From Burkholderiales bacterium (GTDB lineage: Bacteria; Pseudomonadota; Gammaproteobacteria; Burkholderiales; SG8-39), in NCBI GenBank assembly GCA_035459025.1, contig DATHYT010000034.1, positions 9,072 through 73,071 on the forward strand: DNA of 64,000 bases. The letters run 5' to 3'. The position numbers and the translations under genes are program-made. Below, piece by piece: positions 45,380 through 62,439 of the stretch. A model generated the notes under the pieces. That model did no database searches, was not told the origin of the DNA, and saw nothing but the letters and a program-made list of their open reading frames with translations. Position 1 is the stretch's first letter; each line of letters begins with the position of its first letter.

Positions 45380-45395
45380 CCCGCCTCCCAAACGC

Positions 45396-46694: not shown

Positions 46695-46706
46695 CGGGGG
46701 CCTTTC

Positions 46707-48431: not shown

Positions 48432-48435
48432 CGTC

Positions 48436-48705
48436 CTACTCCCCCTCGCCGAACTTGCCGGCCACCAGCTCACGGATCGCCGCCAGCGCGGCCTCGGCGT
48501 CCGCGCCTTCGGCTTCCACCGTGAGCGCGGCGCCGCGCCCGGCGGCGAGCATCATGACGCCCATGATGCTCTTCGCGTTGACGCGCCGGCCGTTGCGCGT
48601 CAGCCAGACCTCGGCGGCGAAGCGGCTCGCCACCTGGGTCAGCTTGGCCGACGCGCGCGCGTGCAGCCCGAGCTTGTTGGTGACGGTGAGCTCAGCGCTT
48701 GGCAC
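48436..48705 (-). CDS. ptsH: HPr-family phosphocarrier protein
   Basis: 89 aa with the His15 motif NKLGLHARAS and the Ser46 motif NAKSIMGVM. Confidence 0.92.
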   Translation of the reverse strand: MPSAELTVTNKLGLHARASAKLTQVASRFAAEVWLTRNGRRVNAKSIMGVMMLAAGRGAALTVEAEGADAEAALAAIRELVAGKFGEGE

Positions 48706-49096
48706 CGCAGGAATCCGAGTTCATGTGCACCACGCCTTCGGCGCCGCCCGAGAGGGCGCGCTGCACCAGCGCGGCGAGCGCGGCGCGGCGGCCCGAAAGC
48801 ACGCGCACCAGCATCGGCAGCGACACGCCGGATACGCCCTCCACGCGGCCGTCGGCCAGCAGCCGCGCGGCGACGTTGCAGGGCGTGGCGCCGAACATGT
48901 CGGTGAGCACCAGCAGCCCCTCGCCCGTGTCCAGGCGGGCGGCGAGCGTGCGCGCGCGCGCGAGCACCGCCTCCGGGGCGTCGCCGGGCGCCACGCCGAG
49001 CGCGGCGGCCTGTGCGGGGGCGCCGAGGATCTGCGCGGCGCTGGCGAGCAGCGCCTCGCCGATGGCGCCGTGCGAGATCACCAGGACGCCGATCAC
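48692..49096 (-). CDS. PTS EIIA component, mannose/fructose family (stand-alone, regulatory PTS)
   Basis: GTG 49096 overlaps the gshB stop (GTGA). IGVLVISHGAIGEAL contains the phospho-His. Overlaps the HPr start by 14 nt. Confidence 0.85.
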   Translation of the reverse strand: MIGVLVISHGAIGEALLASAAQILGAPAQAAALGVAPGDAPEAVLARARTLAARLDTGEGLLVLTDMFGATPCNVAARLLADGRVEGVSGVSLPMLVRVLSGRRAALAALVQRALSGGAEGVVHMNSDSCGAKR

Positions 49097-50037
49097 CGCT
49101 CGAGCCTCGCTTCCAGCGCCGCGATGAACACCTCTCCCGCGTCGTAGCCGGTCTGGTCCTGGATCTCGCGAAAGCACGTCGGGCTGGTGACGTTGACCTC
49201 GGTGAGCCAGTCGCCGATCACGTCCAGGCCCGCGAACAGTACGCCGCGCGCGGCGAGCGGCGGGCCCATGATCTCGGCGATCTCCCGGTCGCGCGCCGAC
49301 AGCGGCTGCGCCACCCCCTTGCCGCCCACGGCGAGGTTGCCGCGCGTCTCGCCCGCTTTCGGGATGCGCGCCAGCACGTACGGCGCGGGCTTGCCTTCGA
49401 TGACGATGACGCGCTTGTCGCCGGCGCGGATCTCGGGGATGAAGCGCTGCGCCATCACGCTCTCGGCGCCGTGACGCGCCAGGGTCTCCACGATCACGTT
49501 GCGGTTGGGGTCGTCGCGCCGGACGCGGAAGATGCCCGTGCCGCCCATGCCCGAGAGCGGCTTCAGGATCGTGTCGCGGTGCTCGTCGACGAAGGCGTGC
49601 AGCGCCGCCATGTCGCGCGTGACCAGCGAGGGCACCGTGAGCTGCGCGTACTCGGCGATGGCGAACTTCTCGTTCAGGTCCCTGAGCGCCTGCGGCGCGT
49701 TGTAGACGCGCGCACCCTGGCGCTCGGCCTCCGACAGCAGCCACGTGCTCGCCACGTACTCCATGTCGAACGGCGGGTCCTTGCGCATCAGCACCGCGGC
49801 GAAATCCTTGAGCGCGGCCTCGGCCGTGCCATCGCGGCGAAACCAGTCCTCGTCGTTGTCGGTGAGCGCGATGCGCAGGGCGCGCGCCGTGACCGGGCCG
49901 GCGCGCCAGGCGAGCGAGTCCTGCGTGCAGACGTGCACCTGGTGGCCGCGGCGCTGCGCGGCGCGCATCATGGCCACCGTGGTGTCCTTGTACGCCTTGA
50001 GCTCTTCCGGCGGATCGATGATGAAGAGCAGGTTCAC
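49093..50037 (-). CDS. gshB: glutathione synthetase (ATP-grasp)
   Basis: LLFIIDPPEELKAYKDTT, MRKDPPFD, ILKPLSGMGGTGIF, GDKRVIVIEG, TEVNVTSPT. Confidence 0.93.
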   Translation of the reverse strand: MNLLFIIDPPEELKAYKDTTVAMMRAAQRRGHQVHVCTQDSLAWRAGPVTARALRIALTDNDEDWFRRDGTAEAALKDFAAVLMRKDPPFDMEYVASTWLLSEAERQGARVYNAPQALRDLNEKFAIAEYAQLTVPSLVTRDMAALHAFVDEHRDTILKPLSGMGGTGIFRVRRDDPNRNVIVETLARHGAESVMAQRFIPEIRAGDKRVIVIEGKPAPYVLARIPKAGETRGNLAVGGKGVAQPLSARDREIAEIMGPPLAARGVLFAGLDVIGDWLTEVNVTSPTCFREIQDQTGYDAGEVFIAALEARLER

Positions 50038-50070
50038 GGGCGATGCGCGCCGCCGGCTGGCGCCGGCCGG

Positions 50071-50562
50071 CTACTTCTTGAGGGTCACGCCCGACTTGCT
50101 CGCCATGAACTCGATGGCGCGCGCCAGCTCCGCGTCGGAGGCGTCGGCGACGCCGCCGCGCGGCGGCATGGCGCCCTTGCCGCCGATTACGGTCTTCAAC
50201 ATCTCGGGCAGCCCCTTCTTCGCCAACGTGCCCCAGGCCGCCGCATCGCCGATCTTCGGCGCGTTGGCGACCCCCGGCACGTGGCACGCGCCACAGGCGG
50301 CGTTGACGATCTCCTCGCCGGTGCGGGCCGCGGACGCGGCGGCACCGGCGCCCGTGGCGCCAAGCTCGATCCGGCCGACGGGCTGCAGGCGCTGCGCCAC
50401 GGCCTGCGGCGCGAGCGCTGCGGGATCCACGCCCGATTTGTTCAGAACCAGATTGACCAGCAGCAGGATGCCGATGATCGGCACCAGAAACGCGAGCAGC
50501 ACCACCACGATCAGTTGCTGCGGTGTCTTGATGAAGGAGGAATGCTCTTCGGGCGTACTCAT
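50071..50562 (-). CDS. membrane-anchored c-type cytochrome (cytochrome c5-like)
   Basis: N-terminal TM anchor, haem motif CGACH, distal GAMPPRGG. Confidence 0.85.
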   Translation of the reverse strand: MSTPEEHSSFIKTPQQLIVVVLLAFLVPIIGILLLVNLVLNKSGVDPAALAPQAVAQRLQPVGRIELGATGAGAAASAARTGEEIVNAACGACHVPGVANAPKIGDAAAWGTLAKKGLPEMLKTVIGGKGAMPPRGGVADASDAELARAIEFMASKSGVTLKK

Positions 50563-50609
50563 GCGGCGTGGCCTGCGTGCGTTTATAAAGGTATGATTTT
50601 AGCTTGAAA

Positions 50610-50686
50610 GCGCCCGTAGCTCAGCGGATCAGAGTATTGGCCTCCGAAGCCAAGGGTCGTGGGTTCGAATCCCGCCGGGCGCGCCA
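50610..50686 (+). tRNA. tRNA-Arg (anticodon CCG)
   Basis: Hand-folded cloverleaf. Acceptor GCGCCCG/CGGGCGC, D-arm GCUC...GAGU, anticodon stem UUGGC/GCCAA with loop CU-CCG-AA, T-arm GUGGG-UUCGAAU-CCCGC, discriminator G, encoded CCA. 77 nt. Confidence 0.93.
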
Positions 50687-50697
50687 CACCCACGCCG

Positions 50698-51882
50698 ATG
50701 TTTGAGCTGAGCGACACCCAGAAGGCCCTGCAGCAAAGCGCGCGCGACCTGGCGAAAAGGAAGTTCGCGCCGCGCGCCGCCGAGATCGACCGCCGCGAAG
50801 AATACCCGTGGCACAACGTCGAGCTGCTGACGCAGGCCGGCTTCATGGGCATGACCATTCCCCAGGAGTACGGCGGCCAGGGGCTGGGCTACCTGGAGGC
50901 GGTGCTGGTGATCGAGGAAATGGCGCGGGTCTGCGGCGTCACGGGCCGCATCGTCGTCGAGGCCAACATGGGGGCCATCGGCGCCATCATGAAGTACGGC
51001 ACGCAGGCGCAAAAGACGCTGGCCGCGAAGCTGGTGCTGGCCGGGGACAAGCCGGCGATCTGCATCACCGAACCCGAGGCGGGCAGCGCGGCGACGCAGA
51101 TGAGCACACGGGCCGATCGCAAGGGCGGGCGCTACGTGCTGAACGGCCGCAAGCACTGGATCACCGGAGGCGGCGTCTCCAAGCTGCATCTGATCTTCGC
51201 GCGGGTGTTCGAGAACGGCGTGGAGCAGGGCATCGGCGGGTTCATTGCCGTGCGCGGCGAGGCCAGGGGCCTCGTCGTCGGCCGGCGCGAGCCGGCGATG
51301 GGCCTGCGCGGCATCCCGGAGTGCGAGATCCTGTTCGAGGACCTGGAGATACCGCTGGAGATGATGCTGGTGCCCCCCGAGGGAATCCGGCGTGGCTTCG
51401 CAGGACTGATGAACGCCTACAACGGCCAGCGCGTCGGCGCCGCCACGGTGGCGCTCGGCATCGCCGCCGGGGCCTACGAGCTGGCGCTCGAGTATGCGCA
51501 GACGCGCAAGCAGTTCGACCGACCGATCTGCGAGTTTCAGGGCCTGCAGTGGATTCTGGTCGACATGCACACGCAGCTGGCCGCCGCGCGTCTGCTGATC
51601 CACAAGGCCGCGGCGGGATCCGGCGACGGCTTTCCCGACATGACCGAGGCCGCCCAGGCCAAGGTGTTCGCCGCCGACATGGCGATCAAGGTCACCAACG
51701 ACGCCCTGCAGGTTTTCGGCGCGGCCGGCTATTCGCGCGAGCTGCCGCTCGAGCGCATGGTCCGGGATGCGCGCATGTTCACCATCGGCGGCGGCACGGC
51801 GCAGATCCTGCGCACCGTGATTGCCTCGCAGCTGCTCGGACGCAAGCTGCCGCAGACGCGCGACGGCTACAGGAATCTCTAG
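50698..51882 (+). CDS. acyl-CoA dehydrogenase-superfamily flavoprotein lacking both canonical catalytic Glu positions; probable 3-sulfinopropionyl-CoA desulfinase (Acd-like)
   Basis: ACAD fold (ITEPEAGSA, HWITGGG, ERMVRDARMF). The IYEGT position reads IGGGT (Gly365, 51790-92). The IVD/LCAD-type base position reads Gln244 (51427-29). Arg84 (50947-49) sits in VTGRIVVEAN. ATG 50698 lies 11 nt after the tRNA. Confidence 0.75.
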   Translation: MFELSDTQKALQQSARDLAKRKFAPRAAEIDRREEYPWHNVELLTQAGFMGMTIPQEYGGQGLGYLEAVLVIEEMARVCGVTGRIVVEANMGAIGAIMKYGTQAQKTLAAKLVLAGDKPAICITEPEAGSAATQMSTRADRKGGRYVLNGRKHWITGGGVSKLHLIFARVFENGVEQGIGGFIAVRGEARGLVVGRREPAMGLRGIPECEILFEDLEIPLEMMLVPPEGIRRGFAGLMNAYNGQRVGAATVALGIAAGAYELALEYAQTRKQFDRPICEFQGLQWILVDMHTQLAAARLLIHKAAAGSGDGFPDMTEAAQAKVFAADMAIKVTNDALQVFGAAGYSRELPLERMVRDARMFTIGGGTAQILRTVIASQLLGRKLPQTRDGYRNL

Positions 51883-53849
51883 CTTGAAGGCACGGTTGCC
51901 CGCGCGCCCAGCCACGTAATCGCGGCGCCGGCCGCGGCGAGCGCCAACCCGGCGAGCGAAAGCTGCAGGTGGCTCAGGCCCAGTTCGCCGCCGCCGGGCA
52001 TCGCCATGACCAGGCCGCCCGCGAGCATGAGCAGCCGCGCCGCCCAGCCGAGCGCGCTGCGCGCAACCGCGCCGATGCCCACCACGTAGCCTTCGAGCGC
52101 CGAGCCGATGAGCGCGATGCCGGCGATCGCCGTGCCGACCACGACGACGATCTCCCACGGCGTGCCGCGCAGGATGAGCGCCGGGTTGAGCACGAAGAAG
52201 AACGGCACGAAATACATCGCCGCGCCCAGGCGCACCGACTGCAGGCCGACCTGCATGGGCGGCGCCTTGGCGATGCCGGCGGCGACGAACGCGGCGAGCG
52301 CCACCGGCGGCGTGATGAACGACACCATGCCCCAGTACAGCATGAACAGGTGCACCGCCACCGGATCGAAGCCGGCGCCGACCAGCGGCGGCGCGAGCAC
52401 GATGGCGAGGAAGATGTAGCACGCGGTGATCGTCATGCCCATGCCGAAGATGAAGCTGGTGACTGCGCCCATCACCAGCAGCACGTAGATGTTGTTGCCG
52501 GCAAGGTAGACGAGGTCGTTGGCGAGCGTGCCGGCAAGGCCGGTGACCGAGAGCGCGCCGATGATGAGGCCCACGCCCGCGAGCAGCGCCGCGAGCTCGG
52601 AAAGCGCGCCGCCCACGCCTTCTAGCAGCGTGCGCAAACGCCTCCAGTCGAGCCGGTAGCGGCGCGAGAACTGGTTGATGACCAGGAGCAGCGCCGTGGC
52701 GTAGAACGGCGCGAGCGACTCTCGCTGCAGCACGAGCAACATGTAGACCAGCAGCGCGAACACGAACAGGTAGTGCCAGCCCTCGAGGAATGTCTGCCCG
52801 AGCGAGGGCAGCTCTGATCGCGGCAAGCCCTTCAAGCCGTTCTTCGCCGCGTAGCCGTCGATCTGCACGAACAGGGCGAAGTAGAAAAGCAGCGACGGCA
52901 CCAGCGCGGCGACGGCGATGGCGACGTAGGGCAGGCCGAGGAACGACGCCATGACGAAAGCGGTGGCGCCCATCACCGGCGGCATGAGCACGCCGCCCGT
53001 GGAGGCGCAGGCCTCGACCCCGCCCGCGTAGGCCGGCCGGAAGCCGATGCGCTTCATCGCCGGGATCGTGACCACGCCGGTGGTGAGCACGTTGGAAACC
53101 ACGCTCCCGGAGACCGAGCCCATCAGGCCGCTGGCGAAGATCGACACCTTGGCCGGGCCGCCGCGCACCGAGCCGAAGAGGGCGAATGCGAGGTTGTTGA
53201 AGAAATGCGCCGCGCCGGTGTATTGCAGCACCGCGCCGAACATGACGAAGCCGATGACGAGCTCGCCGAAGGCGCGCGTCGGGATGCCGAGCGCACTCTC
53301 GCTGGAGGCGAAGTGAAATGACGCGGTCGAGGCAAGATCGCGCGGCAGCCCGGCGATCGGCCCCGGCATGTGCCCGGCGAACACCGGATACAGAGAGATC
53401 AGCGCCACGACCACGAACACGGCGTTGCCGCCGGCGCGCCGCGTCGCCTCGAGCAGCATCACCCAGCCGACGTAGGCGATCCAAACCGCCTGCGCCGGCG
53501 CCTTGTACTCCCATCCTTCCTCGACGATGCGCTGCGCGTGCAGCGCGAAATACGCGAACACGGCGAACGAGGTCGCAAACAGCAGCACGTCGTACCAGGG
53601 CACGGCATTGCGCCGCGCGTGCTTGCCCGCCGGCACCAGCAGAAACACGCTGCCCACGAGCAGCGCGCATAGCCAGTACAGATACGCGGTGTCGAGAAGC
53701 GTTTTGCCGACGAAGAAGCCGAGGTTGAGCAGCTGGTTGAGCGCAAGGCCGATCGCGCCCGAGACGAGGACGATGAGGACGACGCGCCACAGCGGCGCGA
53801 GCGAACGATAGCGTGCCTCGATCGGCGCCGCCTCGGCGGCGTCGGCCAT
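51879..53849 (-). CDS. TRAP transporter fused (DctQ/DctM-type) permease, TAXI subfamily
   Basis: 656 aa with about 18 TM helices. ALISLYPVFAGHMPGP, SGSVVSNVLTTGVVTIPAMK. Sits directly downstream of the TAXI binding protein. Confidence 0.88.
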   Translation of the reverse strand: MADAAEAAPIEARYRSLAPLWRVVLIVLVSGAIGLALNQLLNLGFFVGKTLLDTAYLYWLCALLVGSVFLLVPAGKHARRNAVPWYDVLLFATSFAVFAYFALHAQRIVEEGWEYKAPAQAVWIAYVGWVMLLEATRRAGGNAVFVVVALISLYPVFAGHMPGPIAGLPRDLASTASFHFASSESALGIPTRAFGELVIGFVMFGAVLQYTGAAHFFNNLAFALFGSVRGGPAKVSIFASGLMGSVSGSVVSNVLTTGVVTIPAMKRIGFRPAYAGGVEACASTGGVLMPPVMGATAFVMASFLGLPYVAIAVAALVPSLLFYFALFVQIDGYAAKNGLKGLPRSELPSLGQTFLEGWHYLFVFALLVYMLLVLQRESLAPFYATALLLVINQFSRRYRLDWRRLRTLLEGVGGALSELAALLAGVGLIIGALSVTGLAGTLANDLVYLAGNNIYVLLVMGAVTSFIFGMGMTITACYIFLAIVLAPPLVGAGFDPVAVHLFMLYWGMVSFITPPVALAAFVAAGIAKAPPMQVGLQSVRLGAAMYFVPFFFVLNPALILRGTPWEIVVVVGTAIAGIALIGSALEGYVVGIGAVARSALGWAARLLMLAGGLVMAMPGGGELGLSHLQLSLAGLALAAAGAAITWLGARATVPSS

Positions 53850-53863
53850 GGCGCTTGCCTAAC

Positions 53864-55018
53864 TCACCAGCTCGTCTGCACCGGGTCGAAGCCGGCCTTG
53901 GTCAGCGCCGCGGCGCGCCGCTTCTGCCACGCTTCGACGAACGCCTTGTCGTCGGCGTACGAGCCCTTCTTCTGCTCGGCCCAGGCCGCCGTGAGCACCG
54001 TCTGGCGCTCGAGAAGCTTGTCGTTGTGCGCCTGCTCGGCGGCGCCCCACTTGCCCATTTCCTTCCAGAAGCGGATCGCGCCGTCGTGGAACGGGATCAC
54101 CCAGGCGAAGTTCTGCCGGTCGACCGCCCAGCCGGCGTTGCCCGGCGCGGCGCCCTTGTACATGTCGTAGGTCTCGACCATCGCCTTGGTCATGTTGTAG
54201 ACGAGATTCGCGTCCTGCGAGGCGTAGGTCATCAGGATCGGGTACGGATAGGTGGCCGATTCCGCGGGCTTGTCCTTCGACAGCTCCGCGCCCTCGGTGC
54301 CCATGAACGGGAAGAAGAACGGCGCCACCGCGTTCATGCGCGCCCAGCCTGCCTTGTCCTTGTGCGAAATGATCGGGTAGACGAGGCCGCGCGGCGACTT
54401 GGCGATCTGATAGGCCTTGCCCGAGATCGACGAGGTGAAGGCGGCGTCGACCTGGTTGTTGATGATGCCGTCCATCGCTGCACCGAAGCCGCCGAACTCG
54501 ACCTTGCGCACGTCGTCCCAGGTGAGGCCGGAGAAGGCGAGCATCGCGGTGATGTTCTGGTTGAGCGCCGGCGAGCCGATCACCCAGGCGACGCGCTTAC
54601 CCTTCAGGTCCGCGATGGTGCGCACGCCCGCATCGCCCGCAGCGACCACGGTCAGCACCTGGTCGGAGGTGTTCAGCATCAGTCCGCGCACCGGCTGCGG
54701 GCCCCAGCTCGGCGCGCCGAACTCGAACACGCCTTCCATGGCGAGGTAGGCTCCGCCCACTCCGTTGGCGGAGAATTGCACCTGACCCTCGCGAATCGGC
54801 AGGTTTCTCGACACGTCGTTCTTGCCCGGCAGCACCCTGAGGCTCACGTTGTACTTCTGCTTGAGCGCGTTGCCGATGGCGACGGCCTGGTTGTAGCCGC
54901 CCGAGCCGACGTCGTAGGCGCTCCAGGAAATCGTCGGCGGCAGCTTGACGTCGGCGTGCGCGGCGACGGAGAAAGCGAGCGTGGCGCCGAGCGCCGCGCG
55001 AAGCAAAGCGTGGGTCAT
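53864..55018 (-). CDS. TAXI-family TRAP transporter solute-binding protein
   Basis: GGAGGAGG SD upstream of ATG 55018. Signal peptide MTHALLRAALGATLAFSVAAHA. SGGYNQAVAIGNALKQ, LPGKNDVSRNLPIREGQVQFS. Confidence 0.85.
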   Translation of the reverse strand: MTHALLRAALGATLAFSVAAHADVKLPPTISWSAYDVGSGGYNQAVAIGNALKQKYNVSLRVLPGKNDVSRNLPIREGQVQFSANGVGGAYLAMEGVFEFGAPSWGPQPVRGLMLNTSDQVLTVVAAGDAGVRTIADLKGKRVAWVIGSPALNQNITAMLAFSGLTWDDVRKVEFGGFGAAMDGIINNQVDAAFTSSISGKAYQIAKSPRGLVYPIISHKDKAGWARMNAVAPFFFPFMGTEGAELSKDKPAESATYPYPILMTYASQDANLVYNMTKAMVETYDMYKGAAPGNAGWAVDRQNFAWVIPFHDGAIRFWKEMGKWGAAEQAHNDKLLERQTVLTAAWAEQKKGSYADDKAFVEAWQKRRAAALTKAGFDPVQTSW

Positions 55019-55077
55019 GATGCCGTCCTCCTCCAAGGTATGCCCACCGATGTTAACCGATTCCCCGGGGCGCTAGA

Positions 55078-55671
55078 ATGCTATCCCCGATGAGCCAGCC
55101 GATCAGCCGCTACCCCGTTCCCGAGCTCAAGAACCTGCCCGAAGACGTGCGCGCGCGCATCCTCGCGGTGCAGGAAAAATCAGGCTTCGTCCCCAATGTG
55201 TTCCTGGTGCTGGCGCACCGCCCCGAGGAGTTCCGGGCGTTCTTCGCCTATCACGACGCGCTGATGGAGAAGGAGGGTGGGCTCACCAAGGCGCAGCGCG
55301 AGATGATCGTGGTCGCGACTTCCGGGGCCAACCACTGCCAGTACTGCGTGGTGGCGCACGGCGCCATCCTGCGGATCCGGGCGAAGAATCCCCTGGTGGC
55401 CGACCAGGTGGCGATCAACTACCGCAAGGCCGATATCCCGCCGCGAGAAAAAGCGATGCTCGACTTCGCCATGAAGGTGGCGCTCGAGTCGCACGCGCTG
55501 GGCGACTCCGACCTCGAGGCGCTGCGCCGACACGGGTTCACCGACGAGGACGCTTGGGACATCGCCGCCATCGCCGCCTTCTTCGCGCTGTCCAACCGGA
55601 TGGCGGACTTCACCGCCATGCGGCCGAACGACGAGTTCTATCCGATGGGGCGGGTGCCGAAGGAGAAGTAG
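55078..55671 (+). CDS. AhpD-like / carboxymuconolactone-decarboxylase-family protein (peroxidase-related enzyme)
   Basis: CxxC motif SGANHCQYCVVAHG, with an FFALSNRMAD tail. Alternative start ATG 55090 if TAGAAT at 55074-79 is the -10. Confidence 0.8.
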   Translation: MLSPMSQPISRYPVPELKNLPEDVRARILAVQEKSGFVPNVFLVLAHRPEEFRAFFAYHDALMEKEGGLTKAQREMIVVATSGANHCQYCVVAHGAILRIRAKNPLVADQVAINYRKADIPPREKAMLDFAMKVALESHALGDSDLEALRRHGFTDEDAWDIAAIAAFFALSNRMADFTAMRPNDEFYPMGRVPKEK

Positions 55672-55675
55672 CCGC

Positions 55676-57541
55676 TCAGGCGGCCAGCACCGCGCCGCCG
55701 CGCGCTGCGGGCGCCTGCAGCCAGCGCGCCACGTCGGCGACACCCTGCCCGGTGGTGGCGGCGGTGCTGAACACGGGAACGGCCGGGCCTTTCTTCAGCG
55801 CGAGCATGCCGAGCAGATCGCGCGCCGTGCGCTCCGCGCCCGCGAGGTCGGCCTTGTTGACGACGAACGCGTCGGCGATCTCCAGGATGCCCGCTTTCAG
55901 CGCCTGCACGTCGTCGCCCAGGCCCGGCGGGCAGACCACCAGGCGGGTCGCCGCGATGCTCGCGATCTCGACCTCGGATTGCCCCGCGCCGACCGTTTCC
56001 ACCAGCACGTAATCGAAGCGCGCGGCGTCGAGCAGCGCGACCACGCTGCGCGTGGCGCCGCTCACGCCGCCAGCGTGCCCGCGCGAGGCGAGCGAGCGGA
56101 TGTAGACCTCCTCGTGTCCCTGCACGTCGCCCATGCGGATGCGATCGCCGAGCAGCGCGCCGCCCGACACCGGGCTCGAGGGGTCCACCGCCACCACCGC
56201 GACGCTCGCGCCGGCCGCGAGCAGTTCCTTTGTGAGCGCGGCGAGCAGCGTGGACTTGCCCGCGCCGGGCGGGCCGGTGATGCCGATCACCCGGGCGTGA
56301 CCGCGATGCGCGGCAAGCTGCCGGCCGAGCGCCGCGCCCTCGGCGCTGCCGTTCTCGATTTCGCTGATGGCGCGCGCGATTGCGCGGCGCTCGCGCGCCA
56401 GCACGCGGTCTGCGAGGCTCGAGCGCGCCTGCAGCAGCTCGGCGTTGTGCTCGCCGAGCTGCGGCGGGGGCGCATAGGCCTGCGCCATGCCGTCGACGCG
56501 GATCGGGTTGCCGACGGCGCGGATCGCTGCGCCCCCGGCGTCGATCGCGACCAGCATGTCGCGTTCCTTTGCGAGCTCGGAGCCGAGCGCCTGCTCCAAC
56601 GTCTGGACCGGGGCGGCCACGACGCCGAGCGGCGCCAGGCGCGCCATCCACGACGCGGTGCTGCCGCCCTTGAAAAGCGGCACCAGCGCGGCGAGCACGG
56701 CGTCGCGGTTCTCGCGCCGCGCCGCCATGGTGGCGAAGCGCGCGTCCTGCACCCAGTCGGCGCGGCCGACCTCGCCGCAGAAACGCCGCCAGAACTCGTC
56801 GTGCGAAATGAACACCACCAGCCAGCCGTCGCTCGTCTCGAACACCTGCGCCGGGACGATGTACGGGTGCGCCGAGCGCGCCATGCGCTGCGCGCGCTCG
56901 CCCGCGTTGAGCCACGCCCCTGCCAGGTAATTCAGCTGCGAGAGCATTACGTCGTGCATCGAGACGTCGATCTGGCCGCCGCGGCCTTCGACGATCTTCG
57001 ATAGCAGCCCGAGCGCGCCCATCATGCCGGCGGAGTTGTCGACCGCCGAGTAGCCGGTCTTCGCGGGCGCGCCGCCGGGCTCGCCGGTGATCGCCATGAC
57101 GCCCGTGAGCGCCTGGATGACGTAGTCGTAGGCCGGGCGGTCGGCGTGGCTGCCTTCCAGGCCGTAGCCGGTGAGCGCAACGCAAACCAGCTTCGGGTTC
57201 GCGTCTTTCAGCGCCTCGTAGGTCAGGCCGAGCTTCCTGATCGCCGCGGGCCGCAGGTTGGTGACCAGGGCGTGCGCGCGGGCGGCGAGGCCGCGCAGCG
57301 CGGCGCGGCCATCGTCGCGCGCCAGGTCGAGCGCGACGCTCTTCTTGCTGCGGTTGAGGCTCGCGAAATAGGCGTTATGCCCGCCCACCTGGTGCGGGCT
57401 GACGCGCCGGCCGATGTCGCCCTCGGGCGGCTCGATCTTGATCACTTCGGCGCCCAGGTCGGCGAGCAGCATGCCGCAGTAGGGACCGGCGAGCATGTGG
57501 CCGACCTCCAGTACGACGATCCCCGAGAGCGGGCCGCTCAT
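55676..57541 (-). CDS. fusion protein: class III (CaiB/Frc-type) CoA-transferase (about aa 1-372) + MeaB/ArgK-type mutase-associated GTPase (about aa 373-621)
   Basis: One uninterrupted 621-codon ORF. GIVVLEVGHMLAGPYCG, catalytic Asp in RPAYDYVIQALTG, PQLGEHNAELL, then RAIARAISEIENG, P-loop GITGPPGAGKST (56249-56275), DPSSPVSGGALLGDRIRM, VETVGAGQSE, NKADL. ATG overlaps the stop of the B12 subunit (ATGA). Confidence 0.85.
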   Translation of the reverse strand: MSGPLSGIVVLEVGHMLAGPYCGMLLADLGAEVIKIEPPEGDIGRRVSPHQVGGHNAYFASLNRSKKSVALDLARDDGRAALRGLAARAHALVTNLRPAAIRKLGLTYEALKDANPKLVCVALTGYGLEGSHADRPAYDYVIQALTGVMAITGEPGGAPAKTGYSAVDNSAGMMGALGLLSKIVEGRGGQIDVSMHDVMLSQLNYLAGAWLNAGERAQRMARSAHPYIVPAQVFETSDGWLVVFISHDEFWRRFCGEVGRADWVQDARFATMAARRENRDAVLAALVPLFKGGSTASWMARLAPLGVVAAPVQTLEQALGSELAKERDMLVAIDAGGAAIRAVGNPIRVDGMAQAYAPPPQLGEHNAELLQARSSLADRVLARERRAIARAISEIENGSAEGAALGRQLAAHRGHARVIGITGPPGAGKSTLLAALTKELLAAGASVAVVAVDPSSPVSGGALLGDRIRMGDVQGHEEVYIRSLASRGHAGGVSGATRSVVALLDAARFDYVLVETVGAGQSEVEIASIAATRLVVCPPGLGDDVQALKAGILEIADAFVVNKADLAGAERTARDLLGMLALKKGPAVPVFSTAATTGQGVADVARWLQAPAARGGAVLAA

Positions 57542-57951
57542 GCCAGCGCGCGCGCCAGCTCGTCGATCATCTGCGCGAGCGGCGCGTCGTTGGTGAACAC
57601 GCCCTTCACGCCTGCGGCGAGGAGCGCCTCGCGGTCCTGCGGCGGGATGGTGCCGCCGACGAATACCGGGATGTCGCCCGCGCCCGCGGCGCGCAGGCCC
57701 TCGAGCACCTCGCAGGACAGCGCCTGGTGGCTCCCCGAGAGGATGGAAAGGCCCACGGCGGCGACATCCTCGTCGAGCGCCACGCGCACGATGAAATCGG
57801 GCGACTTGCGCAGGCCCGTGTAGATCACCTCCGCCCCGGCGTCGCGCAGCGCGAGCGCGATCACCTTGGCGCCCGCGTCGTGCCCATCGAGGCCGGGCTT
57901 GGCGACGAGGATCCGCTTGCCCGCGAGGGGCCCTGCGGCGGGCGCGCTCAT
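57538..57951 (-). CDS. cobalamin-binding small subunit of a split acyl-CoA mutase
   Basis: 137 aa. DxHxxG motif in KPGLDGHDAGAKV, GLSILSGSH, VFVGGTIP. ATG 57951 overlaps the large-subunit stop (ATGA). The rest of the 764-aa track ORF is a shadow frame. Confidence 0.9.
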   Translation of the reverse strand: MSAPAAGPLAGKRILVAKPGLDGHDAGAKVIALALRDAGAEVIYTGLRKSPDFIVRVALDEDVAAVGLSILSGSHQALSCEVLEGLRAAGAGDIPVFVGGTIPPQDREALLAAGVKGVFTNDAPLAQMIDELARALA

Positions 57952-59528
57952 AGCCGCACCGGCTCCTGGAACTCGCCCCAGCAGCGCTTGAGGCGCGCGA
58001 CCATCTCGCCCACGGTGGCGTAGGCGTGGCAGCACTCGACGAGCAGCGGCATCAGGTTCTCCTTGTCGTCGGCGGCCGCGGCCTCGAGCGCATCGAGCGC
58101 CCGCCCCGCGCGCGCCGCGTCGCGCCGCTGCTTCACGGCGGCGTGCTTGTCCAGCACGCGCGCGGCCGTGCCCGGGTCGAGGCGGAACACCTCGCCGAAG
58201 CTCTGCGCCTGCCCTTCGCGCCGGTAGCGGTTCATGCCGACCACCACGCGCTCGCCGCGGTCGGTCGCGTCCTTCTTCTCGCGGGCGCGCAACGCGATGC
58301 GGCGCTGCAGCCAGCCGTCCTCGATCGCCTTCACCACGCCGCCGTAGGCGTCGATCTCGCCCATCGCCTGGCGCATGCCTTCCTCCATGCGGTCGGTGAG
58401 CCACTCGACGTAGTAGCTGCCGCCGAGCGGATCCACGGTCGCCGCGACGCCGCTTTCGTGCTGCACGATCTGCTGCGTGCGCAATGCGAGCTCGGCGGAG
58501 AACTCGGTCGGGATCTGGAAGGCCTCGTCGTAGGCGCAGGTGAAAATCGACTGCGCGCCGCCGAGCACCGCGGCGAGGTTCTCGATCGCCACGCGCACGA
58601 TGTTGTTGTAGGGCTGCGCGGCGACGAGCGAGGAGCCGCCGCACACCACGCCGAAGCGAAAGTGCAGCGCCTTCTCGTCGGTAACGCCGTAGCGGCTGCG
58701 CAGCAGCTGCGCCCACAGGCGGCGCCCGGCGCGGAACTTGCACGCCTCCTCGAACAGGTCCATGTGCACGTAGAAGAAGAACGACAGCCGCCGCGCGAAC
58801 TTCGCCACGTCGCCGCCCCGGCGGATGAGCTCGTCCACGTAGGCGAGGCCGTTGGCGAGCGTGTAGGCCATCTCCTCCACCGCCGTGCAGCCCGCGTCGC
58901 GCACGTGCGCCCCGGCGATCGAGATCGCGTTGAAGCGCGGCGTCACCTCGTTCGCGTAGAGCACCGAGTCGGCGATCAGGCGCATCGACGGCCGCACCGG
59001 GAAGATCCAGGTGCCGCGCGCGACGTACTCCTTCAGGATGTCGTTCTGGATGGTGCCGGTGAGCTTGGCGCGCGGCACGCCCTGCTTGTCGGCCGCGGCG
59101 AGGTACATCGCGTAGATGATCGCCGCCGTGCCGTTGATGGTGAACGAGGTGGAGATCGCGCCGAGGTCGATGCCGTCGAACAGGGTCTCCATCTCCGAGA
59201 GCGAGAACAGCGACACGCCCACCTTGCCGACCTCCGGCCGCGCCATGGGGTCGTCGGGGTCGTAGCCGCATTGCGTGGGCAGGTCGAGCGCGACCGAGAG
59301 CCCGGTCTGCCCCTGCTCGAGCAGGAACCGGTAGCGCTGGTTGGACGTCTCCGCGGAGCCGAAGCCCGAGTACTGGCGGATGGTCCAGGGCCGCCCGCGG
59401 TAGCCGTCGGCGAAGATGCCGCGCGTATACGGATAGACGCCCGGCGCGCTGGGCGCGGCGGCCATCTCCTCGCGCACCACCACGGGCACCTCGATTCCCG
59501 AGGGCGTCGTTACGCGCGCGTCGCTCAT
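57948..59528 (-). CDS. acyl-CoA mutase large (substrate-binding TIM-barrel) subunit, divergent methylmalonyl-CoA-mutase family member
   Basis: PYTRGI, RPWTIRQYSGFGS, GLSVALDLPTQCGYD, GTIQNDILKEYVARGTW, PYNNIVRVAIE, LRTQQIVQHESG. Several family-invariant motifs are replaced (see findings). Confidence 0.88.
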   Translation of the reverse strand: MSDARVTTPSGIEVPVVVREEMAAAPSAPGVYPYTRGIFADGYRGRPWTIRQYSGFGSAETSNQRYRFLLEQGQTGLSVALDLPTQCGYDPDDPMARPEVGKVGVSLFSLSEMETLFDGIDLGAISTSFTINGTAAIIYAMYLAAADKQGVPRAKLTGTIQNDILKEYVARGTWIFPVRPSMRLIADSVLYANEVTPRFNAISIAGAHVRDAGCTAVEEMAYTLANGLAYVDELIRRGGDVAKFARRLSFFFYVHMDLFEEACKFRAGRRLWAQLLRSRYGVTDEKALHFRFGVVCGGSSLVAAQPYNNIVRVAIENLAAVLGGAQSIFTCAYDEAFQIPTEFSAELALRTQQIVQHESGVAATVDPLGGSYYVEWLTDRMEEGMRQAMGEIDAYGGVVKAIEDGWLQRRIALRAREKKDATDRGERVVVGMNRYRREGQAQSFGEVFRLDPGTAARVLDKHAAVKQRRDAARAGRALDALEAAAADDKENLMPLLVECCHAYATVGEMVARLKRCWGEFQEPVRL

Positions 59529-60268
59529 CGGCGCGCCCCGATTGCCCTGGCGGTGCGCTGCAGCGCCTCGGCGAGGGGCTTGAGCGCGGCCTCGATGCGG
59601 TGCGCGGGTCCGGCGACCACCACGGCGTAGAGCTCGCCGTCGATGCGCACCGGGGCGCCGAGCGCGTGCACGTCGGCGACGTTCTCGCCGCGCGTCGCGT
59701 ACCAGCCGCGCTTCGCGCCCGCCGCGAGGTCCTTTTCCAGCAGCTCGCGCCGCACGAGCGTGTTGCGCGTGACGCGCGCGAGCTTGAGCGTGTCGAGGAG
59801 CGCGGCGCGCTCGGCCGGCGGCAGCGCGCCAAGCAGTGCCTTGCCCGCCGCGCTCGAGTGCAGCGGCTTGCGGTCGCCGGGCTGTGCGCTGTAGCGGATC
59901 GAGTGCGGGGACTCGACGACGTTGAGGTACACGACCTCGGTGCCGCTCCTCTTGCCGAAAACGATCGTCTCGCCGGTGGCCCTGCCGAGCGCCTCGAGAA
60001 GCGGTGTTACGCGCTCGAGCATCGGATCGTGCTCGGCCACCGCGCGCGCCTTCTGCAGCCAGCGCAGCGTGGGGTACCAGCCCTTGCGCAGGCCGAGCTC
60101 GTACAGGTACCCGCGAAGCTCCAGGGTGCGCAGCAGCGCGTAGCAGGCAGACACCGGGATCGCGAGCCGGCGCGCGAGCTCGGCGATGCCGAGCGGCTCG
60201 CCCGCGGTGGCGAAGGTCTCCAGGATCTGCAGCGTGCGGTCGGCGCTCTTGACGGTCGACATGTTCAC
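59525..60268 (-). CDS. IclR-family transcriptional regulator
   Basis: SADRTLQILETFA...LGIAELARRLAIPVSACYALLRTLE (wHTH) plus an IclR effector domain. Start GTG 60268 or ATG 60262. The stop overlaps the mutase ATG (ATGA). Confidence 0.88.
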   Translation of the reverse strand: MNMSTVKSADRTLQILETFATAGEPLGIAELARRLAIPVSACYALLRTLELRGYLYELGLRKGWYPTLRWLQKARAVAEHDPMLERVTPLLEALGRATGETIVFGKRSGTEVVYLNVVESPHSIRYSAQPGDRKPLHSSAAGKALLGALPPAERAALLDTLKLARVTRNTLVRRELLEKDLAAGAKRGWYATRGENVADVHALGAPVRIDGELYAVVVAGPAHRIEAALKPLAEALQRTARAIGARR

Positions 60269-60288
60269 ATATGTGAAATAGCTTTCAC
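60264..60288. promoter_or_regulatory. candidate IclR operator: three TTCAC/GTGAA half-sites forming two overlapping palindromes
   Basis: TTCACATATGTGAA (60264-60277, perfect palindrome) overlapping GTGAAA-TAGC-TTTCAC (60273-60288). The site covers the iclR start codons within the 62-bp amidase/iclR spacer. Confidence 0.45.
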
Positions 60289-60330
60289 GATTGTGGCAGT
60301 GTGCCAGCGCGGCAAGGCGCGGGCAAGGGG

Positions 60331-61731
60331 TCAGCCCGCCAGCGGCGGGCGGCGCTTCCAGGCCTGCGTTTCCTGCTCGAACGCGTGCGCGAGCTGCAGC
60401 ACCCCGAAGTCATCGCGATAGCGCCCGATGACCTGCAGGCCGACGGGCAGCCCCGCCGGGGTGAAGCCCGCGGGCACCGAGATCGCCGGGTGGCTGGCGA
60501 TGGTGATGTAGTAGCAGCTCTTCATCCAGTCGAGATAGTTCGTCAGCTTCACGCCGGCGATCTCGGTCGGGTACTCGGTCTCGACCGGGAAGGGCGGCAG
60601 CTGGCTCACCGGCGCGAGCAGGAACTCGTAGGTCTCCAGGAACGCGCGCAGGCGCTGGTAGAGCTCGGTGCGCAGCACTTCGGCGCGCGCGATCTTCGCG
60701 CCGTCGAGCGCAAGCCCCTGCTCGATGTTCCAGATCACCGTGGCCTTCAGCTCGGCGCGGTGCGTCTTCAAGTACCGCGCGTAGCGCAGGGCGAAGGACA
60801 CCGCGCGCAGCGTCTCGAAGGCTTCCGTGGCGCCGCTGAAATCGGGGCAGGCTTCTTCGACGATGCAGCCGAGGTCCTGGAACACCCTGCGCTGCGCTTC
60901 CAGCACTGCGCTCACCGCGGGCTCCACCGGCAAGCCGCCGAAGTCTTTCGTCCACGCCATGCGCACTTTCTTGAAAGAGCGCTTGAGCGGCTTGGCGAAG
61001 ATCGATCCCGGCTCGGCGATCGACACCGGCGCGCGCCGGTCGGGCCCCGCCATGGCGGAGAGCAGGAAGGCGGCGTCTTCCACCGTGCGCGCGACCGGTC
61101 CGAGCACCGACTGGGTGTCCCAGGCGTTCGCCGCGGGGTAGGAAGGCACGCGGCCCGGCGTCGGGCGGAAGCCGACGACGTTGCAGTAGTTGCCGGGGTT
61201 CCGCAGGCTCGCGGCGAGGTCCGAGCCGTCGGCGAACGGCAGCATGCCGCAAGCGACCGCGGCCGCGGCGCCGCCCGAGGAGCCGCCCGCGGTCTTGGAA
61301 GGGTCGTAGGGATTGCGCGTCGCGCCGAACACCTTGTTGAAGGTGTTGCTGCCGGCGCCGAATTCCGGCGTGTTGGTCTTGCCCAGCGTGATCGCGCCCG
61401 CAGCCTTCAGGCGCTCGACCAGCAGCGCGTCTGCAGCCGGGACGTTGTCCTTGAAGACGAGCGATCCCATGGTGGTGCGGACGCCCTTCGTCGGCAGCAG
61501 GTCCTTGTAGGCGATGGGCAGGCCGGCAAGCGGCGGCTTCTTGCCTTTCTGGCGGTCCAGGGCCTTCGCTTCCTTCAGCGCCTGCTCGGGCAGGAAGGTG
61601 ACGATCGCGTTCACCTTGGGGTTCACGCGCTCGATCCGGGCGATGAAAGCCTGCATCACTTCTGTGGCGGAGAGCTTGCGCGCGTGGAGAAGGCGGGCGA
61701 GCTGGCGCGCGGGCGTATAGGGGATGTCCAT
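60331..61731 (-). CDS. amidase-signature family amidase
   Basis: GLPIAYKDLL, GKTNTPEFGAGSNT, AGGSSGGAAAAVA (Ser-cisSer-Lys signature). 466 aa. Confidence 0.88.
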   Translation of the reverse strand: MDIPYTPARQLARLLHARKLSATEVMQAFIARIERVNPKVNAIVTFLPEQALKEAKALDRQKGKKPPLAGLPIAYKDLLPTKGVRTTMGSLVFKDNVPAADALLVERLKAAGAITLGKTNTPEFGAGSNTFNKVFGATRNPYDPSKTAGGSSGGAAAAVACGMLPFADGSDLAASLRNPGNYCNVVGFRPTPGRVPSYPAANAWDTQSVLGPVARTVEDAAFLLSAMAGPDRRAPVSIAEPGSIFAKPLKRSFKKVRMAWTKDFGGLPVEPAVSAVLEAQRRVFQDLGCIVEEACPDFSGATEAFETLRAVSFALRYARYLKTHRAELKATVIWNIEQGLALDGAKIARAEVLRTELYQRLRAFLETYEFLLAPVSQLPPFPVETEYPTEIAGVKLTNYLDWMKSCYYITIASHPAISVPAGFTPAGLPVGLQVIGRYRDDFGVLQLAHAFEQETQAWKRRPPLAG

Positions 61732-61764
61732 GGCTTCAGTCTATCGCGCTAGACTTCTCCGGCT

Positions 61765-62439
61765 ATGCTCGGCCGCGCCGCCATGCTGCTGTTCTTCGAC
61801 ATCGCCCCGGAGGCGATCGCCGAGCACGACGACTGGCATACGCACGAGCACCTGCCCGAGCGATTGTCGATCCCGGGATTCCTGCGCGGCACGCGCTGGG
61901 TGGGCTTGCGCGGCGGGCAGTCGCGGTATTTCGTGATCTATGAGGTGCGCGACACCGGCGTCCTGACCTCCGCGGCCTATCTCGAGCGGCTCAACAACCC
62001 CACGCCGTGGACCCAGAAGATGATGCCGAGCTATCGCGGGATGACGCGGGGTTTCTGCGCCGTGACCGGGAGCGCCGGGCTGGGGATGGGACACGCCGCG
62101 CTGGTGGTGCGGTTCAAGCCTGGCGATGCGGCGCCATTGCGCGATTGGCTCGTGAAAGAGGTCATACCCGGGCTTGCGACGCGGCCGGGGCTGGGTGGCT
62201 GCTTCCTGTTCGAGTCGGCCGTCGCGCCGCCGATGACGCGTGAGCAGCGCATTCGTGGAGCGGACGCGGGCGTGGATTGGGCGCTGGTGGTCACCGGGTA
62301 CGACGAGGAAACGGTTGCCGGTGTCGAGCGCGCTGATTTGGCGAAGACTCGACTGGAAGGTCGCGGGGCGGCGATAGCGGGTTTCGGCCTCTACCGCACG
62401 CACTACACGCTTTACGAGGCCGAGGCGAAGCGTTCTTGA
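61765..62439 (+). CDS. hypothetical protein, apparent tandem ferredoxin-like (EthD/Dabb-like) halves
   Basis: Divergent from the amidase gene. Likely start ATG 61783 (MLLFFDIAPEAIAEHDDWHTHEHLPERL). The second half repeats the pattern (ALVVRFKPGDAAPLRDWLVKEVIPGL). No family recognised with confidence. Confidence 0.6.
   Translation: MLGRAAMLLFFDIAPEAIAEHDDWHTHEHLPERLSIPGFLRGTRWVGLRGGQSRYFVIYEVRDTGVLTSAAYLERLNNPTPWTQKMMPSYRGMTRGFCAVTGSAGLGMGHAALVVRFKPGDAAPLRDWLVKEVIPGLATRPGLGGCFLFESAVAPPMTREQRIRGADAGVDWALVVTGYDEETVAGVERADLAKTRLEGRGAAIAGFGLYRTHYTLYEAEAKRS

Follow-up and report, generated by a model that had tools for sequence, protein, structure and literature searches.

To our knowledge, only a handful of substrate specificities have been described for B12-dependent acyl-CoA mutases. 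In Escherichia coli, the operon sbm (scpA)-argK-scpB-scpC encodes such a mutase along with a GTPase of the MeaB type, a protein with the crotonase fold, and a CoA-transferase by which CoA is recycled onto a dicarboxylate. In Aromatoleum aromaticum, the degradation of indoleacetate involves a class III CoA-transferase, IaaL, which exchanges CoA between phenylsuccinyl-CoA and succinate and is encoded beside a B12-dependent mutase, IaaGH (PMC8360864). In Variovorax paradoxus TBEA6, acdA (VPARA_05440) is beside act (VPARA_05450), with mdo (VPARA_05600) nearby; Act is a class III succinyl-CoA:3-sulfinopropionate CoA-transferase, and the CoA ligase SucCD is also listed as an activator of 3-sulfinopropionate (PMC6370202). 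Here we compare these systems with an 11.7-kb stretch of DNA from an uncultured Burkholderiales lineage. This stretch (positions 50698 to 62439) includes a mutase operon and a desulfinase gene and is part of a window of 64,000 nucleotides from contig DATHYT010000034.1, which is the whole stretch that was analyzed and to which all positions refer.

A first-pass annotation of this sequence proposed that the genes in the stretch form one pathway for the uptake, activation, and desulfination of 3-sulfinopropionate. On balance, we favor another reading: the stretch would be a mosaic of separately inherited units, whose core is a CoA-recycling transferase-mutase operon for a dicarboxylate, and the desulfinase gene (acd), an amidase gene, and a gene for a 224-amino-acid protein would be independent of that core.

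A mutase-transferase cassette in Proteobacteria

We identified genes from a listing of open reading frames (ORFs) together with scans against Pfam and NCBIfam, and we identified tRNAs with ARAGORN and Rfam. The operon at the core of the stretch has these features:

59525-60268, minus strand: IclR-family regulator, the first gene of the ATGA-coupled operon (PF09339 and PF01614)
57948-59528, minus strand: large (substrate) subunit of the mutase, 526 aa (PF01642, E = 5e-191)
57538-57951, minus strand: B12-binding small subunit of the mutase, 137 aa (PF02310; TIGR00640, 135 bits), with DGHDAG as its DxHxxG motif
55676-57541, minus strand: class III CoA-transferase::MeaB fusion (PF02515, E = 4e-111; PF03308, E = 6e-73), comprising the CoA-transferase (about 56426-57541) and the MeaB G-protein chaperone (about 55676-56398)
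60264-60277: perfect 14-nt palindrome TTCACATATGTGAA at the start of the IclR gene, a candidate operator

All three junctions within the operon (IclR/mutase, mutase/B12 subunit, and B12 subunit/transferase) are 4-nt ATGA overlaps, as the first-pass annotation had described. Indeed, all of the genes that it named were recovered by our ORF, Pfam, NCBIfam, and tRNA searches.

To find relatives of the operon, we scanned one genome per GTDB species for the clade-specific peptides FFFYVHM and WTIRQYSG. This yielded at least 557 confirmed members of the mutase clade, and the best 80 of these are 73-94% identical to the mutase in the window. They are found in Burkholderiales, Bradyrhizobium, Xanthobacter, Paraburkholderia, Azospirillum, Halomonas/Billgrantia, Pararhizobium, and others. 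A crotonase-like (ECH) protein, the mutase, the B12 subunit, a class III CoA-transferase, and MeaB make up a cassette that is found in more than 500 proteobacterial genomes, usually together with an IclR-family regulator and a transporter for organic acids. Among the loci with enough flanking sequence, the B12 subunit follows the large subunit in all 83; the crotonase-like gene is directly upstream of the mutase in 75 of 81 (93%); a class III CoA-transferase follows the B12 subunit in 65 of 73; MeaB is near the mutase in 57 of 64; and IclR is directly upstream of the cassette in 41 of 60. The operon in the window is a variant of this cassette that lacks the crotonase-like gene.

When we clustered the neighboring ORFs, the transporters adjoining the cassette belonged to several families: DctPQM at 18 loci, MFS at 15, TctC at 12, and TAXI-TRAP at about 10. 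In the distantly related alphaproteobacteria Sulfitobacter dubius, L048, and L059 (L numbers designate related loci), TAXI and fused TRAP genes follow MeaB in the same orientation. No other catabolic enzyme was consistently linked to the cassette in the clustering of all neighboring ORFs. NCBI's annotation pipeline (PGAP) gives these proteins generic names, such as "methylmalonyl-CoA mutase family protein," "CoA transferase," or "GTP-binding protein," and in the literature on the cassette or on new mutase clades, we found nothing relevant beyond the Iaa system.

The cassette combines in one operon the four functional types that are found in the Sbm operon of E. coli. However, ScpA is a fused, canonical methylmalonyl-CoA mutase (MCM) and ScpC falls outside the class III transferases, whereas the mutase of the cassette is split, its pocket appears to be remodeled, and it is accompanied by a regulator and a transporter. 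Also, the operon in the window has just three of the four types, as the crotonase-like gene is missing. By gene arrangement, the cassette resembles IaaGH and IaaL: both combine a two-subunit B12-dependent mutase, which for the cassette would also act on carboxylated substituted succinyl-CoA or malonyl-CoA, with a class III transferase that conserves the thioester. But the iaa cluster includes a CoA ligase, hydantoinase-like enzymes, and IaaF, none of which is consistently linked to the cassette, while the cassette includes the crotonase-like protein, IclR, and MeaB (which is fused to the transferase in the lineage of the window).

Several loci have unusual arrangements. On a linear plasmid of Streptomyces sp. 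N50 (L173, 8001-11989), a 57%-identical mutase and a B12 subunit are followed, after about 1 kb, by a 54%-identical class III transferase, so the pairing of mutase and transferase reaches beyond the Proteobacteria. Bradyrhizobium manausense has two mutases from the clade about 30 kb apart on one contig (L035 and L040), and a contig from a metagenome-assembled genome (MAG; L079) has several pieces of mutase and B12 genes in tandem. In five alphaproteobacterial/Rhodospirillaceae MAGs (L023, L030, L050, L055, and L088), genes for a luciferase-like monooxygenase and a 2-oxoglutarate-Fe(II) oxygenase precede the cassette, and the flanking genes encode a split thiamine pyrophosphate-dependent decarboxylase, a 3-hydroxyisobutyrate-dehydrogenase-like protein, a transporter of the formate/nitrite family, a PaaK-like ligase, and an FAD-dependent aromatic hydroxylase. 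This gene context may be a clue to the substrate.

The mutase and its predicted pocket

The mutase clade is tight: its members are 72-94% identical to each other and at most 57% identical to anything outside. For instance, seven plasmid or chromid records are at 72-76% identity to the mutase in the window, and the Streptomyces protein is next, at 57%. Identity to true MCMs is 45-52% (52% for a split MCM from Brevibacillus and about 45% for scpA-type proteins), and the closest relatives with solved structures are HcmA (469 bits) and then human MCM (435 bits). The mutase in the window scores 563 bits against PRK09426, the equivalog for MCM, which has a cutoff of 876.

We aligned the pocket residues of the clade with those of MCMs, of HcmA, and of a mutase from Methylobacterium aquaticum (pMaq22A_1p), which we take to be an ethylmalonyl-CoA mutase (Ecm) from its organism and architecture. 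Positions are numbered as in the MCM of Propionibacterium shermanii.

Tyr89: YSGF in the clade (Tyr kept), YAGF in MCMs, Ile in HcmA, YAGH in the probable Ecm
Arg207: Arg in the clade (VARGTW; VRNTY in human MCM), Arg in MCMs, Gln in HcmA, Arg in the probable Ecm
Asp117 of HcmA: Ala in the clade, Ala in MCMs, Asp in HcmA, Ala in the probable Ecm
Tyr243-His244: GAH in the clade, GYH in MCMs, GYH in HcmA, SYH in the probable Ecm
His328-Gln330: RFGVVCGGS in the clade, R(A/V)H(C/T)QT in MCMs, RFHCQT in HcmA, RYGVQVNS in the probable Ecm
HTN (Asn366): IFTC in the clade, LHTN in MCMs, LHTN in HcmA, LPAW in the probable Ecm

Like the canonical MCMs (from P. shermanii, human, or Mycobacterium tuberculosis), the clade has the PF01642 fold, equivalents of Tyr89, Gln197, Arg207, and His244, the DxHxxG motif, and an association with MeaB. 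Of the residues that we checked, those that bind the carboxylate (Tyr89 and Arg207) are present, but Tyr243, His328, Gln330, and Asn366 are not: Tyr243 is replaced by Ala, His328 by Gly, Gln330 by Val, and HTN by FTC. The pocket residues are invariant in seven members of the clade that are 75-93% identical to the mutase in the window; the Streptomyces outgroup (L173) shows pocket changes of the same kind, with GSH, RFGCVAGG, and MFTA as the corresponding motifs. The probable Ecm also keeps the Tyr and Arg and departs from MCM around His328 and HTN, as the clade does, but it is a single fused polypeptide with 39% identity to the mutase in the window, it keeps the equivalents of Tyr243 and Gln330, and it has no transferase partner.

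From its sequence, then, the mutase in the window appears to be an atypical acyl-CoA mutase with a remodeled pocket, not an ordinary MCM; the first-pass annotation had also called it atypical. Because Tyr89 and Arg207 are kept while the rest of the pocket is remodeled, we infer that the substrate offers a carboxylate to the Tyr/Arg pair and that its migrating end has a different or larger substituent, which would suit a pair of substituted succinyl-CoA and malonyl-CoA.

Could the operon nevertheless be an ordinary MCM system, like sbm-ygfDGH of E. coli, that interconverts succinate, methylmalonyl-CoA, and propionate? Its component types match those of the Sbm operon, Tyr89 and Arg207 are conserved, and the cassette's crotonase-like protein keeps its first catalytic Glu and lacks the second, like YgfG decarboxylase. 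But at four or five pocket positions, residues that do not vary among the human, Mycobacterium, and Brevibacillus MCMs and HcmA have been replaced, and the replacements are invariant across the clade. The gap between 45-52% identity to true MCMs and at least 72% identity within the clade, along with the score below the equivalog cutoff, points the same way. The split MCM of Brevibacillus adjoins mce and carboxyltransferase genes, while the cassette has no epimerase or carboxylase in its context; and the transferase belongs to a different family than ScpC. We consider an ordinary MCM system unlikely.

We think that the mutase may well have an undescribed specificity (that is, not for methylmalonyl-, ethylmalonyl-, isobutyryl-, 2-hydroxyisobutyryl-, or pivalyl-CoA) and form an obligate CoA-recycling pair with the class III transferase, which in this lineage is fused to MeaB.

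The transferase-MeaB fusion and the crotonase-like protein

The transferase has the class III fold, with all 366 positions of the PF02515 profile covered. About 46 clusters at 90% identity contain fused proteins of 614-645 aa with at least 70% identity to the one in the window, and a second group of fused proteins (688-739 aa) is at 54-58% identity. There are also many unfused transferases of 371-391 aa that are 72-92% identical to the transferase in the window. MeaB is a separate gene after the transferase in L005 and in Diaphorobacter, and it is absent from L009 and L010. Since MeaB can be fused, separate, or absent among relatives, the fusion is real, specific to a lineage, and able to be lost again. 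We did not find a description of a MeaB-transferase fusion in the literature.

The crotonase-like protein does not match any NCBIfam equivalog. Its first catalytic Glu is kept (GGGAELA), and the second position reads FVQG, where rat crotonase has QPE. We therefore rejected a canonical hydratase; the decarboxylase YgfG has this residue pattern, which would be compatible with an epimerase as well. Even very close relatives have repeatedly lost the gene (of the nearly identical L009 and L010, only L009 has it), and the mutase and the transferase are still under purifying selection at loci that lack it, which suggests that the crotonase-like protein is an accessory rather than an indispensable step.

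A variable region between RNase G and tRNA-Arg

The other features of the stretch, along with the adjoining tRNA, which is the only one in the window, are as follows:

50610-50686, plus strand: tRNA-Arg(CCG) (ARAGORN; Rfam, 67.5 bits)
50698-51882, plus strand: acd, an orthologue of 3-sulfinopropionyl-CoA desulfinase, 394 aa (three Pfam domains of the acyl-CoA dehydrogenase [ACAD] family; NCBIfam NF042439)
51879-53849, minus strand: fused TRAP permease of the DctQM type, 656 aa (PF06808; TIGR02123, 564 bits versus a cutoff of 321)
53864-55018, minus strand: TAXI-family TRAP solute-binding protein with a signal peptide (TIGR02122, 202 bits versus a cutoff of 84)
55078-55671, plus strand: "peroxidase-related" protein of the AhpD/CMD family with a CQYC motif (PF02627; TIGR01926, 221 bits versus a cutoff of 82)
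60331-61731, minus strand: amidase-signature amidase (PF01425; PRK07486, 517 bits versus a cutoff of 465)
61765-62439, plus strand: 224-aa protein predicted to have a tandem ferredoxin-like (ABM/Dabb-type) fold (no Pfam or NCBIfam match)

There are at least five transcription units. The first is acd, which is convergent with the permease gene (their stop codons overlap by 4 nt); the second is the TAXI-TRAP pair; the third is the CMD gene, which is divergent from TAXI and convergent with the transferase; the fourth comprises the amidase, IclR, mutase, B12, and transferase::MeaB genes, all in the same orientation, with the amidase gene 62 nt upstream of IclR; and the fifth is the gene for the 224-aa protein, which is divergent from the amidase gene.

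In the relatives, one syntenic flank consists of a class III transferase, PtsI, HPr, EIIA, gshB, cytochrome c, and tRNA-Arg, and the other consists of RNase G and Maf. The tRNA-Arg, cytochrome c, and gshB genes are conserved and anchor the variable region on one side, and the same tRNA-Arg is at the same place in L001, L009, L012, L092, and L121. What lies between the flanks differs:

L001: SDF transporter, 211-aa homologue, amidase, IclR, crotonase-like gene, mutase, B12 subunit, fusion, CMD, TAXI, TRAP, and then the tRNA directly; no acd
L009: as L001 but without MeaB, and with an ABC transporter before the tRNA
L011: no crotonase-like gene; IS91 transposase after the permease
L012: the site of TAXI-TRAP is occupied by a TctC gene
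L013/L091: no IclR, crotonase-like gene, or 224-aa gene; acd is present, followed by malic-enzyme and Mla genes instead of the tRNA
L092: collinear with 43685-55665 of the window (tRNA, acd, TRAP, TAXI, CMD); amidase kept; 224-aa gene absent
L177: acd is present
L178: crotonase-like gene is present; TAXI-TRAP genes are fragmented; no acd
L179: no IclR, crotonase-like gene, or acd

In L092, about 960 nt of unrelated DNA replace the entire IclR-mutase-transferase operon. Conversely, the operon is present without acd in six close relatives (L001, L009, L011, L012, L178, and L179). Among the relatives compared, acd is in this region only in L013/L091, L092, L115, L121, and L177, besides the window itself. 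TAXI-TRAP and CMD are present without acd in L001, L009, L011, and L179, and the amidase and 224-aa genes vary independently. Farther afield, at loci with enough flanking sequence, orthologues of these genes are rarely near the mutase: acd at 1 of 51 loci (only some of the closest relatives have it there), TAXI at 4 of 56, CMD at 6 of 60, the amidase at 3 of 55, and the 224-aa protein at 1 of 52. We rejected a single co-conserved locus on the basis of tblastn co-occurrence across 80 genome loci and about 10 metagenome loci. From these sequences, the region from RNase G to tRNA-Arg(CCG)-cytochrome c-gshB appears to be variable, with units that come and go independently.

We also considered whether acd replaces the missing crotonase-like gene. 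An apparent anticorrelation vanished with more loci (counts of 2/0/2/4; Fisher test, P of about 0.2, not significant), and L179 lacks both genes. In a neighbor-joining tree of the mutase gene, loci with and without the crotonase-like gene or acd are interleaved. Decay of the operon in this lineage was rejected as well: dN/dS is 0.14-0.28 for the mutase, transferase, and MeaB. Across all of the genes, it is 0.08-0.39, similar to RNase G, which indicates purifying selection; so the genes are being maintained.

Nor does the stretch look like a classical island integrated at a tRNA: there is no integrase, the G+C content is uniform (0.67-0.73 in the block, with no compositional anomaly, and about 69% throughout the window), and the only repeat flanking the tRNA and acd is 12 nt long and imperfect. 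This direct repeat, TAGCTTGAA(A/G)GC, is at 50600-50611, where it abuts the 5' end of the tRNA, and at 51880-51891, where it spans the overlapping stops of acd and the permease gene; it could be due to chance. In L011, the IS91-family transposase (8659-9930) lies right after the permease gene, which is the spot that acd occupies in the window. In L178 (12005-15632), the gene calls for CMD, TAXI, and TRAP are fragmentary, which could reflect pseudogenes or frameshifts in the assembly.

Proposed function of the operon

The constant core of the cassette is a transporter, a regulator, a transferase, and a mutase, and the operon in the window encodes only a transferase, a chaperone, and a mutase as its enzymatic machinery, so the simplest function is a CoA-recycling isomerization. 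A dicarboxylic acid would be imported, here by TAXI-TRAP, and the class III transferase, judging by its family and its invariant adjacency to the mutase, would load the acid onto CoA. The adenosylcobalamin-dependent mutase would then interconvert a substituted succinyl-CoA and a substituted malonyl-CoA by migration of the thioester carbon. In this scheme, the transferase would catalyze acid A + B-CoA -> A-CoA + acid B, and the mutase would catalyze A-CoA -> B-CoA. With the CoA of the product handed to the next molecule of acid, the pair would be an ATP-free, CoA-recycling acid isomerase, comparable to IaaL and IaaGH. The MeaB domain would load and protect the cofactor and, being fused to the transferase, would hold that enzyme on the mutase. 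It is plausible that the transferase-mutase pair is served by a TRAP-type transporter. The acd gene would be an independent desulfinase gene that was put next to the tRNA in a few relatives, and the amidase and 224-aa genes would be further independent units.

Several observations weigh against this reading, in which the direction of isomerization and the choice of CoA donor are conjectural. Since the crotonase-like gene, which is found at 93% of loci, is missing from the window, the operon may do less, or something different. In L092, TAXI-TRAP and CMD remain although the mutase operon is absent, so the transporter is not necessarily dedicated to that operon, and the TAXI protein in the window is just 25% identical to the cassette-linked TAXI protein of Sulfitobacter. 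Finally, in the window, there is no second copy of the palindrome TTCACATATGTGAA near the TAXI or acd genes, even with up to three mismatches.

The desulfinase gene next to tRNA-Arg

The acd protein scores 669.9 bits against NF042439 ("3-sulfinopropanoyl-CoA desulfinase"), above the cutoff of 600, and aligns end to end and without gaps to AcdDPN7 of Advenella mimigardefordensis (5af7; E = 1e-156). Arg84 is conserved, and the catalytic YEG of the ACAD family reads GGG (AGG in 5af7), so the Glu is absent; an Arg at position 84 and a missing catalytic Glu are reportedly the features of a desulfinase. These features are shared with AcdDPN7 and with AcdA of V. paradoxus, and by its sequence, acd appears to be a convincing orthologue of 3-sulfinopropionyl-CoA desulfinase, a type of enzyme that is already known. 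The first-pass annotation was right on this point. The gene is also under purifying selection (dN/dS of 0.15-0.16).

Unlike acdA of V. paradoxus, the acd in the window is not adjacent to an orthologue of act, and mdo is not among the annotated genes of the window; instead, acd stands alone after the tRNA gene. The gene is on the same strand as tRNA-Arg, and its ATG comes exactly 11 nt after the CCA at the 3' end of the tRNA; no Shine-Dalgarno sequence is visible (cacccacgccgATG, 50686-50700). The same spacing in two relatives (L092, 9989-10001, and L121, 2555-2567) suggests that acd is cotranscribed with tRNA-Arg. A scan of metagenomes found 36 loci with orthologues of acd at 60% identity or more, 19 of which have enough upstream sequence. 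At 5 of these 19 (L094, L103, L111, L112, and L116), a class III transferase is directly upstream of acd on the same strand. These share only 33-37% identity with the window's fused transferase and 27-35% with a second, stand-alone transferase at 45501-46694.

According to the first-pass annotation, 3-sulfinopropionate is taken up by TAXI-TRAP, activated by the fused transferase with succinyl-CoA, and desulfinated by Acd, and the mutase regenerates succinyl-CoA. Parts of this proposal stand: acd is of the true desulfinase type, the transferase and mutase are coupled, and a CoA cycle that is closed by the transferase is reasonable for the pair because of the precedent of IaaL and IaaGH and the component types of the Sbm operon. 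Class III Act does activate 3-sulfinopropionate with succinyl-CoA in Variovorax, as the annotation stated, and the fused transferase is in the same superfamily (PMC6370202). No dedicated act gene is beside acd; acd and the operon are less than 8 kb apart in the window, L013, L115, and L177; and the two acd-positive loci whose status for the crotonase-like gene is known both lack it. What does not hold is the link from the operon to acd and 3-sulfinopropionate. The listed genes are not co-conserved, given the single locus of 51 with acd near the cassette, the presence of acd in L092 without the transferase or the mutase, the six close relatives that have the operon without acd, and the nonsignificant relation between acd and the crotonase-like gene. 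The Act-like transferases beside acd elsewhere reach only 33-37% identity to the fused one, and acd is transcribed as a unit of its own, convergent with the permease gene. The 20 larger genes annotated elsewhere in the window include nothing that would connect propionyl-CoA with a methylmalonyl-type intermediate from which the mutase could regenerate succinyl-CoA: as the annotation itself noted, there is no propionyl-CoA carboxylase, epimerase, or sulfite exporter (and, we would add, no mdo) among them. Nor is the pocket of the mutase like that of MCM. We therefore view this proposal as quite unlikely.

A narrower version is that acd, TAXI-TRAP, and CMD form a small unit for the uptake and desulfination of 3-sulfinopropionate, with activation by SucCD as in Advenella, and that the mutase operon is an unrelated neighbor. 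L092 keeps exactly tRNA-Arg, acd, TRAP, TAXI, and CMD without the mutase operon, the stops of acd and the permease gene overlap, and SucCD is a listed activator (PMC6370202). But TAXI-TRAP and CMD are found without acd in the four relatives mentioned above, and the mutase cassette is accompanied by transporters of various families in different phyla. This too has little probability in our estimation.

Other genes in the stretch and the window

The transporter is of the TAXI-TRAP type, with a TAXI binding protein and a fused DctQM permease. Binding proteins with solved structures did not provide usable hints about ligands: the solved TAXI proteins are distant matches (49 bits or less), and the cassette-linked DctP proteins resemble 4mco (186-219 bits), in which malonate is reportedly bound. 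In close relatives, the CMD gene is always beside TAXI-TRAP, including in L092, which lacks the mutase.

The IclR gene is deleted in L013 and L179. The palindrome TTCACATATGTGAA is kept at this position in L001-L003 and, as a variant, in L017, and is a candidate autoregulatory operator for IclR. It occurs once in the window even if up to three mismatches are allowed, and we therefore rejected a shared IclR operator at the TAXI or acd genes.

The amidase gene is kept in L092, which lacks the mutase operon. The 224-aa protein, whose gene is absent from L013 and L092, has 4217 homologues, all of them unnamed. Its AlphaFold2 model (pLDDT of 86.7) is a duplicated ferredoxin-like barrel, and the best Foldseek matches are duplicated ferredoxin-like/ABM proteins (5f9p, with E = 7e-9 and TM of 0.64; 3f44; and 9kdp). 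The description as a tandem Dabb-like protein therefore holds at the level of the fold, and the predicted fold is most like that of the ABM-type cofactor-free oxygenases. The protein has an invariant motif, EHDDWHTHEH, with a cluster of histidines (H21, H25, H27, and H29). In L001, the 211-aa homologue is ATGA-coupled to a gene for a dicarboxylate/amino-acid symporter of the SDF family.

Elsewhere in the window, the stand-alone class III CoA-transferase (397 aa, 45501-46694, minus strand) is directly downstream of the EIIA-HPr-PtsI gene set, an arrangement that is kept in L001 and L092 with 91-93% identity. A SAM-II (SAM_alpha) riboswitch at 45423-45500 (minus strand; 44.3 bits versus a gathering score of 36) lies just upstream of a gene for an alpha/beta-hydrolase (44258-45397), which may be a MetX-type homoserine acyltransferase. 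An Rfam scan of the window did not find a cobalamin riboswitch. The remaining genes in the window are housekeeping genes: MreBC/PBP2, GatAB, AceK, isocitrate lyase, and PilT-like ATPases.

Other possible substrates

The cassette could also be a module for aryl- or alkyl-succinates of the Iaa type (phenylsuccinyl-CoA/benzylmalonyl-CoA or similar) that feeds beta-oxidation. A split mutase beside a class III transferase is the arrangement of IaaGH and IaaL (PMC8360864), the pocket, which seems to be enlarged and more hydrophobic, fits a bulky substituent, and at some loci there are thiolase-like and DUF35 genes, PaaK-like ligases, or aromatic hydroxylases nearby. Yet no IaaF-type decarboxylating dehydrogenase or other iaa gene is consistently linked to the cassette, and the only gene from the ACAD family in the block is acd, which is of the desulfinase type. 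Furthermore, the carriers include Bradyrhizobium, Xanthobacter, Paraburkholderia, and Halomonas, which are commonly regarded as aerobic heterotrophs. We consider an Iaa-type module to be very unlikely.

It seems extremely improbable that the substrates are noncarboxylate analogues of succinyl-CoA, such as 3-sulfinopropionyl-CoA, with the mutase moving the thioester beside the leaving group and the crotonase-like protein expelling that group, by analogy with the decarboxylation of methylmalonyl-CoA, as a B12-dependent alternative to Acd.

Implications

The notable object in this stretch is the unnamed mutase-transferase cassette, along with the lineage-specific fusion of transferase and MeaB; it is within the known kind of acyl-CoA mutases. 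The desulfinase is placed beside the cassette by a local mosaic, which is a caution for the annotation of such regions: adjacency to a tRNA and plausible chemistry were not matched by co-conservation. The mutase clade is tightly conserved in hundreds of proteobacterial genomes from soil, freshwater, and marine habitats, yet it has only generic annotations. Should the fusion hold transferase and mutase together, labile CoA esters could be channeled between them. Naming the substrate of the cassette would fill a gap in our understanding of dicarboxylate catabolism and would show how pocket residues tune the specificity of these mutases.

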